Positions 13,324 through 15,398 of a stretch of 18,157 nucleotides of DNA are shown piece by piece. Made by a program: the position numbers and the translations under genes. Origin of the DNA: a virus; IMG/VR virus record IMGVR_UViG_3300027604_000052. One strand, 5' to 3'. Under the pieces are notes generated by a model. The model did not search any database. It saw nothing but the letters and a program-made list of their open reading frames with translations, and was not told the origin of the DNA. Every line of letters begins with the position of its first letter. Positions within the stretch are counted from its first letter, which is position 1.

Positions 13324-13679
13324 CCACGCTCTCTTTCCGGCGCAACGAGGTTCTCCCACGCGCCCTCCTTGTAGATCGTCGCCTCGACGTCCCACGGACC
13401 CGCCGTGTAGCAGCCGCCGGCCACGAAGACCTTCTTGCCCTTGTACTTCACGAGCGCGCCACACGACCCGTTGCCCTGCGCGTAGGCCGTCGCGTGCATC
13501 TTGATGTCGAGGCCGCGACCCTTGTATTTCATCGTGAGCGCCGAGTGCATGGGGCTCGACTCCTTGGCTACGACTTCGCCCTTCTGATCGACGAACTTGA
13601 GCACGCGGAGCATGAGCGCGTCGAGCGGCTTGGCCTCCTCGTCCCCCTCGTCCTCATCACGCATGCGACTCCTCGCCAT
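13320..13679 (-). CDS. Hypothetical protein, 119 aa. The start is uncertain; alternatives are at 13664 or 13613
   Basis: Track ORF. It overlaps the end of the AAA gene by 23 nt if the 13679 start is used. Confidence 0.45.
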   Translation of the reverse strand: MARSRMRDEDEGDEEAKPLDALMLRVLKFVDQKGEVVAKESSPMHSALTMKYKGRGLDIKMHATAYAQGNGSCGALVKYKGKKVFVAGGCYTAGPWDVEATIYKEGAWENLVAPERERG

Positions 13680-15327
13680 CGCTCGTCTTGAGGTCGAGAA
13701 AGTTCGACACGTACTTGAACAGCTCGAGATCGATCTTGTTCTTCTTCGGGTCGCGCTTGTGGAGCATCCGGCCGAGCTTCAAGAGGTTCTTGACGTTCCT
13801 GCCCGAGATCTTCGGGAACTCGGTCACGAGCTGCCGGATCGTCCCGACCGGCATCTCCATCCCGTACTGCTTCGAGAGGACGCCCCAGATCTCGACGAGC
13901 TGGTCTCGCGTCGGCAGCGCGTACCGGATCCACGCGGTCGCGCGGCTCATAATGGCGTCGTCGATCACGGTCGCCCGGTTCGACGTGAGGAAGAGCACGC
14001 CGCGGTAGTGCTCGAGGACGCGGAGGAACACCCCCACGATAGCGTTCTGCTGGATGTCCGAACCGCGCGCGTGCACGTAGACGTCCGCCTCGTCGATGAG
14101 CAGGATCGCTCGCCAACGCGACGCGCGCGTGAGCACCGTGAGAAGCTCCTTCTCGACCTTGGACTCCTCCGTGCCGAGCTGCGAACACTGGACGACGTAG
14201 AGCGGCTTCTTGATCTCCTCGGCGAACACCTCCGCGGTGAGCGTTTTGCCGGTGCCGGGCGGGCCGGTCGCGATCACGATCGTGCCGCCTGTCTTGCCCT
14301 TGATGATATCCTCCATCACCTCCGAGGATCCCTCGACGAGGATCGTAATGAGGGATTTCGTCTGCTCGTCGAGCACGAGCTTCGAGGCTGCAGTCTTGTC
14401 GTACTCGTACGGCGTGAGGTTCCGGACGTGGATGAGCATGAACTCGTGCCGACCGAGGTCGAACACTTTGACATAAGGGTGGACGGGCTTGGCAACGTCG
14501 CCATCCTCGTCTTCGTCGTCGTCATCGTCGTCGTCGCTCTTGCCACCCTTCTTCCAGAAGGAAGCGTCGGCCGTGGTCCCATCCTCGCGATTACGGCTAC
14601 TCGATCGCTCCTCCTCTTCATCACCGTCGTCCATCACGACGGTAGCCGCTTGCCCCTCCCGCTCCATCGCGATCTCTTGGTAGCTGTAGTAGCTCTCGGG
14701 GTAGCCGGTCCCGACCGCCCTGAACTGCGCACCCGTCAGCGGCGCGAGCCTCTTGTAAAGCTCGATGTCCTCCATGTACACGGCGACCGCCTCGTCCGTC
14801 TCGAGGTGGTAGCCCTTCGCGGCGAGGATCTCGGGCACCGTCTTGCCCAGGTCCGGGACGTGGAACCTGAGCGACTCGCCGTCCGAATACCCGCGCGTCA
14901 CAGCCTCGAACCTCACGGTCACGTTGGCCTGGCTGCCACTCCGCGGATCCGCCTTGTTGTACGCGATGTGCGCGACGAAGTACGGCACGGCGAACCCGTC
15001 CGACTCATCGTGAAAGAGCCACTTGTTCGGGGAAGGCTCGACGTACGCCCGGAGGGCCGCTGCGAAGGGCTCGAGCTTGCCGACCTTGTTGCCGCTCGGA
15101 TCCGCACGGAGCTTCCTGTAAGAGGTGATCTTCCGGCAGAGAGTCTTGCCCGTCCCGTCGTCATTCTCGTCCTTCGAGGCGCGCGCGTGGACGGCTTCGA
15201 GCTGTTCGTCCGTGAATCTCCCGGCGTCGATGTCGATGAACTGGTCCGCGTCGCGGTACGACACCGCCCGCCTGATGGCTTCGGTCTTGACGTCCTTCAG
15301 GTACCGGACGCGGATGTGCAGGTTCAC
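13657..15327 (-). CDS. AAA+ family ATPase, about 556 aa: an N-terminal domain of unknown function of about 300 aa, a poly-Asp/Glu linker, and a C-terminal AAA module
   Basis: Walker A GPPGTGKT, Walker B ILLIDEAD, and a sensor region TSNRA. The proposed GTG start at 15327 has GGGGAGAG 6 nt upstream and overlaps the stop of the 24-aa micro-ORF (GTGA). The track start at 15501 would add an Arg-rich artifact and overlap the upstream gene by about 100 nt. Confidence 0.8.
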   Translation of the reverse strand: MNLHIRVRYLKDVKTEAIRRAVSYRDADQFIDIDAGRFTDEQLEAVHARASKDENDDGTGKTLCRKITSYRKLRADPSGNKVGKLEPFAAALRAYVEPSPNKWLFHDESDGFAVPYFVAHIAYNKADPRSGSQANVTVRFEAVTRGYSDGESLRFHVPDLGKTVPEILAAKGYHLETDEAVAVYMEDIELYKRLAPLTGAQFRAVGTGYPESYYSYQEIAMEREGQAATVVMDDGDEEEERSSSRNREDGTTADASFWKKGGKSDDDDDDDEDEDGDVAKPVHPYVKVFDLGRHEFMLIHVRNLTPYEYDKTAASKLVLDEQTKSLITILVEGSSEVMEDIIKGKTGGTIVIATGPPGTGKTLTAEVFAEEIKKPLYVVQCSQLGTEESKVEKELLTVLTRASRWRAILLIDEADVYVHARGSDIQQNAIVGVFLRVLEHYRGVLFLTSNRATVIDDAIMSRATAWIRYALPTRDQLVEIWGVLSKQYGMEMPVGTIRQLVTEFPKISGRNVKNLLKLGRMLHKRDPKKNKIDLELFKYVSNFLDLKTSDGEESHA

Positions 15328-15398
15328 GACGTTCTCTCCCCGATCGCCGCCACGATGACGGAGACGACGAGGATCGCCATGTAGACGATCGCGCTCAT
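15324..15398 (-). CDS. 24-aa hydrophobic micro-ORF (MSAIVYMAILVVSVIVAAIGERTS), not in the track
   Basis: A strong RBS GGAGGA lies 6 nt upstream of the ATG. The ATG overlaps the upstream stop (TGATG), and its TGA overlaps the AAA GTG start (GTGA). The product is a single predicted transmembrane helix. Confidence 0.4.
   Translation of the reverse strand: MSAIVYMAILVVSVIVAAIGERTS

Follow-up and report, generated by a model that had tools for sequence, protein, structure and literature searches.

The gene considered here encodes an AAA+ ATPase of 556 amino acids (aa) and lies on the minus strand at 13657..15327 of an 18,157-nt stretch of viral DNA, the IMG/VR record IMGVR_UViG_3300027604_000052 (hereafter the window). 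Directly upstream of it, at 15324..15398 (-), stands an open reading frame (ORF) of only 24 codons, MSAIVYMAILVVSVIVAAIGERTS, which we call the micro-ORF. We think it fairly probable that the two are separate neighbours in the overlapping gene chain of a large, probably jumbo, phage, and their juxtaposition is most simply explained by dense packing of the operon. With the ATPase, a known, large and uncharacterised AAA+ family of phages and bacteria gains a new member. The micro-ORF is probably a real, lineage-specific gene for a single-helix membrane peptide, whose translation and membrane insertion are predicted from its sequence. Judging from the loci compared, it does not accompany the ATPase as a conserved partner, and the pairing is confined to the closest relatives and forms no conserved system.

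The micro-ORF and its distribution

The micro-ORF is linked tightly to both of its neighbours. Its Shine-Dalgarno (SD) site, GGAGGA at 15405..15410 (-), is 6 nt before the ATG, which shares one base (A) with the stop codon TGA (15400-15398) of the upstream 93-aa gene, and its own stop TGA (15326-15324) overlaps the ATPase start GTG (15327-15325) as GTGA at 15324..15327 (-). All three features had been read correctly in the original prediction. The micro-ORF looks coding, its GC content by codon position being 0.50/0.42/0.96 compared with 0.62/0.39/0.89 in the ATPase gene, while the two other frames of the same region have GC at position 3 (GC3) of 0.52 and 0.43. Moreover, the micro-ORF is the most hydrophobic of the 84 small ORFs (18–45 aa, six frames) in the window, with a best 15-residue Kyte-Doolittle mean of 2.90 (1.84 in the next small ORF), a mean of 2.52 over the first 20 residues and a hydrophobic core of 19 residues, which is predicted to form a single transmembrane helix (about residues 2–20) followed by a short polar tail. 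It thus shows what is expected of small membrane proteins, a hydrophobic run of some 18 residues or more within a frame that looks coding, and it resembles the general class of small single-pass phage membrane proteins in its length (about 24 aa), its 19-residue core, its own SD site and its overlaps. The single-helix membrane micro-protein proposed in the original prediction is therefore probably real, given the GC3, the outlying hydropathy and the conservation described below. The statement that the ORF is unannotated holds in part: gene callers missed it on several near-identical contigs and in the relative L007, but IMG gene calls include it on some others, and the exact 24-aa sequence is recorded from 13 JGI contigs, for which a look-up gives only the window's own singleton cluster. 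No PADLOC match was found for it.

Six JGI metagenome contigs (L001-L006) match the window at 99.9% identity and carry no comparative information, and the best informative relative is L007, a portion of a 278.8-kb ENA contig. L007 and the window are syntenic, with more than 10 genes in common in the same order, and identities include 77–78% for the ATPase, 69% for the DUF3846 protein and 72% for PadR. This shared order and the length of the contig make it very likely that the window is a fragment of a jumbo phage; a whole-window megablast against phage records gave no match. Similarity at the nucleotide level begins 16 nt before the micro-ORF and continues through the ATPase gene, and neither of the flanking genes (93 aa and 114 aa) is conserved. 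The counterpart of the micro-ORF in L007, (M)SAIIVYMSIIVASVLVLATGKGSLS, has 26 aa and a GTG start, and retains the SD site, the frame, the hydrophobic character and the GTGA overlap (at 6001-6004). It differs from the window micro-ORF by two indels of exactly 3 nt each, and its GC3 is 0.81, that of the L007 ATPase gene being 0.85. Fourteen of the 24 residues are identical and all the changes are conservative (A/S, L/I, V/A, A/L, I/T, E/K and T/S), a pattern that fits a transmembrane helix constrained in composition and not in sequence.

Outside these two phages the pairing was not seen. Conservation of the micro-ORF and of its coupling in homologous loci, which the original prediction had asked for, held in L007, with frame, SD site and GTGA overlap, and failed elsewhere. 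In the 74% relative (L008/L009) there is no micro-ORF, the 127-nt spacer holding a hairpin and only the two-codon mini-ORF ATGATGTGA (1396-1409 in L008, 4 nt before the GTG). Nor is there one in the seven relatives of 58–63% identity (L086-L089 and L172-L174), although a non-hydrophobic ORF of 25 aa (MGQAFREIPNAHIFDNLIFAVQDCR, 4921-4998) ends 3 nt before the ATPase ATG in L086. It is also absent before gp082, the homologue in Bacillus phage AR9, and from 77 of 79 bacterial loci, the other two having only chance-like small ORFs. About 60 distinct IMG/VR phage loci showed no conserved equivalent and only a few unrelated small hydrophobic ORFs, among them ambiguous ones in L069 and L071. The locus L010 (ATPase identity 89%) extends only 12 nt upstream, and these would fit a micro-ORF that ends with an ATGA overlap, which proves nothing. 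In addition, a degenerate micro-ORF pattern had one match in the metagenome collection (L171), a chance match inside a long ORF, and none in viral contigs. A pattern made for the DNA of the ATPase N-terminus likewise had 0 matches in the metagenome and viral contig collections, though it fits all ten close loci, so the scanned collections do not contain this ATPase clade.

Overlaps of this kind are common in the window. All the real genes, as judged by a GC3 test, are on the minus strand and form one tight chain, in which the majority of the junctions are overlaps of 1, 4 or 8 nt according to the gene calls on near-identical contigs. Thus, the stop/start overlap between micro-ORF and ATPase is the local norm and not special. 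RNA folding around the junction gave z-scores from -0.07 to +2.31, no more stable than shuffled sequences, and the 61-nt stretch around the ATPase start was less stable than any of the 200 shuffles (z +2.31); no RNA structure is shared between the junctions of the window and L007. Since this region is unstructured, the ATPase start is accessible with its own SD site, and restart after termination is plausible and not required. A leader or attenuator mechanism is unsupported, no alternative or occluding RNA structure having been found. Of the coupling or leader peptide in the original prediction, the coupling is thus generic in the operon, and the leader was not borne out, leader-type structure being absent from the folding against shuffles. 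Neither a sigma-70-like promoter nor an intrinsic terminator was found on the minus strand in 13000-16500.

The ATPase, its clade and its family

The start of the ATPase is the GTG at 15327-15325, because homologous N-termini are shared from phages to bacteria and the upstream extension has a non-coding GC3. It is preceded by the SD-like site GGGGAGAG at 15334..15341 (-), which falls within codons G20-E21-R22 of the micro-ORF. In the three nearest homologues (89, 78 and 74% identity) the same position reads (M/V)NLHIRV(R/K)YLK, and one of them starts with ATG and has an in-frame TAA two codons upstream. Bacterial homologues begin with MKLQIERP, and an alignment of 41 family members (44–79% identity) begins at the same column as the window ATPase, so the conserved longer N-terminus that would have spoken against the predicted start is not there. 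The frame upstream of 15327 is open and Arg-rich, and its GC3 along the stretch shared with the micro-ORF is 0.43, compared with 0.96 for the micro-ORF's own frame. The candidate starts GTG 15501 and ATG 15450 are ruled out by GC3 together with the N-terminus conservation.

Pfam places one AAA domain (PF00004) at aa 352-464 (61.3 bits against a cut-off of 21.2, E 1.7e-16), and both motifs named in the original prediction were located. The Walker A motif GPPGTGKT (G355-T362) is at 14242..14265 (-) and invariant in 41 homologues, and the Walker B motif LLIDEAD (L409-D415) is at 14083..14103 (-), with ILLIDEAD invariant in the same number. The second region of homology (SRH), TSNRATVIDDAIMSR, at 13942..13986 (-), contains the sensor-1 residue N450 and a single conserved arginine, R462; its invariant positions T448-S-N450-R...D456-D-A...S461-R462 align to the SRH of VAT, with one of the usual two arginines. 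The position of pore loop 1 is taken by S-Q-L-G (Q383, L384 and G385 invariant), with no aromatic residue. In sequence searches VAT and p97 are found at E ~4e-8, and the full-length AlphaFold monomer model, with a predicted local distance difference test score (pLDDT) of 83.4, matches PDB chains in the AAA module only, with scores of 16.9 for Rix7, 16.8 for FtsH and 16.1 for VAT, then Vps4 and spastin, and 13.2 and 11.8 for Bcs1 and CbbQ. Profiles, sequence comparison and the model thus agree in placing the protein as a one-ring AAA of the classical clade (Rix7/FtsH/VAT-like), and the CbbX, MoxR and two-ring Cdc48 assignments that had been suggested as examples were not borne out.

Compared with the classical-clade members (Rix7/NVL, FtsH, VAT/Cdc48/p97, Vps4, spastin and Msp1), the window ATPase has one AAA ring only, a pore loop without the aromatic residue, one SRH arginine and an N-terminal region that has no relation to the N-domain of Cdc48, MIT domains or the transmembrane and protease parts of FtsH. 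Several named groups can be set aside individually. The tandem D1/D2 rings and double-psi-barrel N-domain of Cdc48/p97/VAT are absent. The NCBIfam CDC48, PAN and FtsH models all score far under their cut-offs, the FtsH models at 21–22 bits against 600–1008; there is no Peptidase_M41 match, and the translation, on reading, shows no hydrophobic segment like the N-terminal transmembrane helices of FtsH. Likewise, the protein has neither the AAA_3 or AAA_5 core of MoxR/CbbQ, nor the form of the Rubisco activase CbbX (~310 aa), nor the Bcs1-specific N-terminal domain before the AAA module. Bcs1-like ATPases have been noted in jumbo phages (PMC7824862). The best-scoring named subfamily for the AAA module is IetA of the plasmid-stability and anti-phage system IetAS (IteA in NCBIfam), with E 1.3e-14 in PADLOC and 3.4e-11 for NCBIfam NF042959. 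However, the match covers aa 308-517 only, that is the AAA part, at 42.9 bits against a cut-off of 510, so membership is rejected, and the genes searched next to the ATPase include no IetS-like protease.

As predicted, the AAA module is C-terminal to a region of about 300 aa of unknown function, in which Pfam finds no domain and which has no match among solved structures. Its family-specific alpha/beta domain occupies about aa 1-235 (14623..15327, -), and the AlphaFold model of the N-domain has a pLDDT of 83.7 and a predicted template-modelling score (pTM) of 0.78. The only structural neighbours of this model (aa 1-275) to have any support are the N-terminal parts of giant-virus AAA ATPases, found by Foldseek in Terrestrivirus (A0A3G4ZLE4), Mimivirus LCMiAC01 (A0A481Z0A9) and Klosneuvirus (A0A1V0SHU6) at E ~1e-3 to 2e-2 and template-modelling (TM) scores of 0.33–0.43. 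The acidic tract, D265-D277 (DDDDDDDEDEDGD), at 14497..14535 (-), is encoded by an imperfect (GAC)n repeat, and the proposed origin from a repeat agrees with Tandem Repeats Finder (14496-14536, period 3, 13.7 copies, 76% matches). It had been called a poly-Asp linker, which does not hold: the tract lies between the invariant W258 and conserved beta strands, the segment P281-D310 (PVHPYVKVFDL..H..HV.NL.PY.YD; 14398..14487, -), which stand with invariant columns between it and the AAA module, so that it is, according to the model, a disordered loop belonging to the pre-AAA region instead of a plain linker between domains. In the model, two disordered acidic loops, residues 239-246 and 262-274 (pLDDT <50 in the latter), flank the invariant F257-W258, and the strands span 277-306. 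Across 39 homologues of the phage clade the loop has 14–63 residues (median 23), with a median of 9 D/E against 2 K/R. In the one bacterial homologue compared, that of Bradyrhizobium, the strand segment is kept, the poly-acidic loop is replaced by a non-acidic one and the FW motif is absent.

The whole protein, N-domain included, matches PHROG 29662, the family of Bacillus phage AR9 gp082 (E 1.6e-89; aa 60-547 on profile positions 64-546 of 548, 483 positions). By tblastn, homologues are found in the Bacillus jumbo phages AR9, PBS1, Goe21 and Internexus at 35–40% identity over aa 60-547 (35% for AR9 and PBS1), and in Rhizobium phages the match covers the AAA half only. In a metagenome protein search the homologues of ~550 aa numbered more than 2,500, many of them from 200–550-kb contigs, and a scan of species-representative genomes found more than 567 bacterial species with a homologue of 35–40% identity. 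When the N-domain alone was searched with phmmer against 1.84 billion representatives, 351 clusters were obtained, nearly all of 540–600 aa with the domain N-terminal. AR9 gp082 (YP_009282987.1; PBS1 gene 276) matches the window ATPase in size and in its architecture of an N-domain with a single AAA module. It has an annotated early promoter of its own 33 nt before the gene, which suggests a role early in infection. The AR9 and PBS1 proteins are annotated as 'ATP-dependent protease' or 'AAA family ATPase'. Since neither Pfam nor NCBIfam finds a protease domain in the window ATPase, the former label is unsupported in this member. A limited literature search found no experimental function for AR9 gp082 and no experimental work on the family.

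The bacterial homologues have ~565–575 aa and occur in Bradyrhizobium, Xanthobacter, Methylocystis, Oxalobacter, Rhodoblastus and Methylobacter among others. The carriers (loci L091-L170) belong mainly to the Alpha-, Beta- and Gammaproteobacteria and include many methanotrophs, phototrophs or autotrophs. The chromosomal copies, for example in Bradyrhizobium oligotrophicum S58, Oxalobacter, Xanthobacter and Methylocystis, are unnamed 'AAA family ATPases' with the architecture of the window protein from the first residues to the C-terminus, keeping the PVHPY strands and the AAA motifs. In the two annotated bacterial loci, of Oxalobacter and Bradyrhizobium, the gene stands alone among housekeeping genes (pepA, lptF, folA; amine oxidase). 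As side observations on the family, some homologues are ~900 aa long owing to inteins, which in P0034, P0079, P0089 and P0112 have ~345 aa with homing-endonuclease domains and sit exactly in the Walker A loop, after the Lys (GPPGTGK|C...), and one IMG/VR phage contig (L053) has two tandem ATPase paralogues at 2995-4908 and 4485-6803.

Neighbours or partners

If the two genes are separate neighbours, as we favour, the N-terminal region of about 300 aa would presumably bind a substrate or a partner, and the AAA module would then remodel the target with ATP, by analogy with Rix7, VAT, FtsH and Vps4. Full threading and unfolding is doubtful, since the pore loop lacks the aromatic residue. The micro-ORF would have been gained (or kept) only in the lineage of the window and L007, and would be translated from its own strong SD site into a peptide of about 24–26 aa forming one transmembrane helix. 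Ribosomes finishing it could restart at the overlapping GTG, as may happen at most junctions of the operon, or the ATPase could be initiated from its own SD site in the unstructured region.

Several observations weigh against this reading. The missing aromatic residue weakens the analogy with unfoldases. In L007 the micro-ORF and the ATPase have stayed side by side despite changes on both flanks, and this could reflect a functional link. A comparable arrangement occurs in L027/L085, where a 31-aa ORF (4824-4919, VPHLNPYIAWWFAWFGAVVLLPVIHKIQKSK) with a GGAGG SD site and one predicted transmembrane helix ends 6 nt before the ATPase gene; its GC at the three codon positions (0.55/0.35/0.74; the ATPase there has 0.58/0.34/0.76) is a convincing coding signature. 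The ATPase homologue there is distant (39% identity), and the ORF is unrelated in sequence to the window micro-ORF. In L173 a transmembrane ORF of 40–65 aa, ambiguous, ends 8 nt before the ATPase. As to the micro-ORF being a gene, its conservation rests on one informative relative, L007, in comparison with which 10 codons are changed non-synonymously and 2 synonymously, so that, to go by this alignment, the constraint is on composition and frame and not on sequence.

The fast change of the peptide would suit another explanation, that the micro-ORF is a regulatory upstream ORF whose act of translation, and not its product, sets the output of the ATPase from a weak GTG. The overlap is conserved in L007, the ATPase starts with GTG in the window, in L007 and in L008, and the ATPase SD site lies within the micro-ORF; furthermore, the mini-ORF of L008 and the 25-aa ORF of L086 also stand just before the ATPase start. 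However, the ATPase has its own SD site at a good spacing, most junctions in the operon overlap likewise, so that nothing singles out this one, and a pure coupling ORF needs neither hydrophobicity nor a GC3 of 0.96. We therefore regard such a regulatory role as unlikely.

Alternatively, the micro-peptide could be a dedicated membrane tether or regulator, supplying in trans a transmembrane helix to an ATPase that would work at the host membrane. FtsH, Msp1/ATAD1 and Bcs1 carry such a helix in cis. The unit kept in L007 between differing neighbours is consistent with this, as are the unrelated 31-aa ORF of L027/L085 and, ambiguously, that of L173. Small transmembrane ORFs precede the ATPase in about 7 of about 70 loci, against a background of 4.5% (32 of 704) for small hydrophobic ORFs ahead of the remaining genes of these phage loci, giving a rough Poisson p of ~0.04, uncorrected and over non-independent lineages. 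Moreover, the gene upstream of AR9 gp082 is annotated as a holin. Against the tether stand the absence of the micro-ORF from more than 90% of the family, including the 74% relative and nearly all the bacterial loci, and the presence of only 4–6 residues outside the predicted helix, which leave little surface for specific binding. The candidate peptides of different lineages are unrelated in sequence, the family-wide enrichment is marginal at best and post hoc, and in AR9 a promoter and 230 nt stand between the holin gene and the ATPase. A tether is thus, in our estimation, decidedly unlikely.

Least convincing is a chance open frame without a useful product in a GC-rich spacer, which we hold to be very unlikely: the ORF is very short, at 63% GC open frames arise often (upstream of its start the ATPase frame is open too), gene callers skip it and no purifying selection is seen at the sequence level, but the GC3 pattern is frame-specific in both phages, the hydropathy is extreme against the 83 other small ORFs, and both L007 indels are multiples of three with start, SD site and stop retained.

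The gene chain and the meaning of the finding

The neighbours of the two genes differ between the window and L007. The 93-aa gene upstream (15398..15679, -), taken from the gene calls on near-identical contigs, has no assigned function and no Pfam, PHROG or PADLOC match. It is an insertion or deletion relative to L007 (5748-5927), which has no homologue of it, and there the homologue of a 66-aa gene (86% identity) directly abuts the micro-ORF, the junction lying at the TTGCCGGAGGA block, which is identical in both phages. Downstream, a 114-aa gene (13320..13664, -) overlaps the ATPase stop by 8 nt and is replaced by another gene in L007. The same gene chain includes an RtcB RNA ligase at 5040-6464 (-; E 1.7e-85) and a phosphoribosyltransferase-like protein at 3640-4437 (-), and the PadR and DUF3846 genes are likewise in the window. 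At 2-2337 (-) an ORF of at least 778 aa, running off the left end of the window, resembles the Major Vault Protein (MVP), with the shoulder domain PF11978 at E 4.7e-30 and the vault repeat PF17795 at E 3.6e-7. This MVP-like protein is carried by what is probably a soil or peat jumbo phage, and the only description of phage MVPs to date is a preprint dealing with phages of the human gut (bioRxiv 10.1101/2023.11.10.566534).

On present evidence the pairing itself matters little beyond annotation. For annotation, the start of the ATPase is fixed, the protease label is seen to lack support in this member, and one more probable small membrane-protein gene is added, of a kind often missed by gene callers. 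A bolder idea, which we rate as quite improbable, is that large phages have repeatedly and independently placed a gene for a single-helix peptide before this ATPase (window/L007, L027/L085 and perhaps L173), the peptide recruiting or gating the ATPase at the host membrane. If true, this would make a split AAA+ machine, tethered to the membrane and based on an N-domain fold without a solved relative and distributed over bacteria, jumbo phages and possibly giant viruses. The large ATPase family, with its confidently modelled N-domain of about 300 aa that has neither a solved relative nor a Pfam model, is a reasonable target for structural and functional work, and if the peptide does tether the ATPase to the membrane, it would represent a new way to build a membrane-bound AAA machine.

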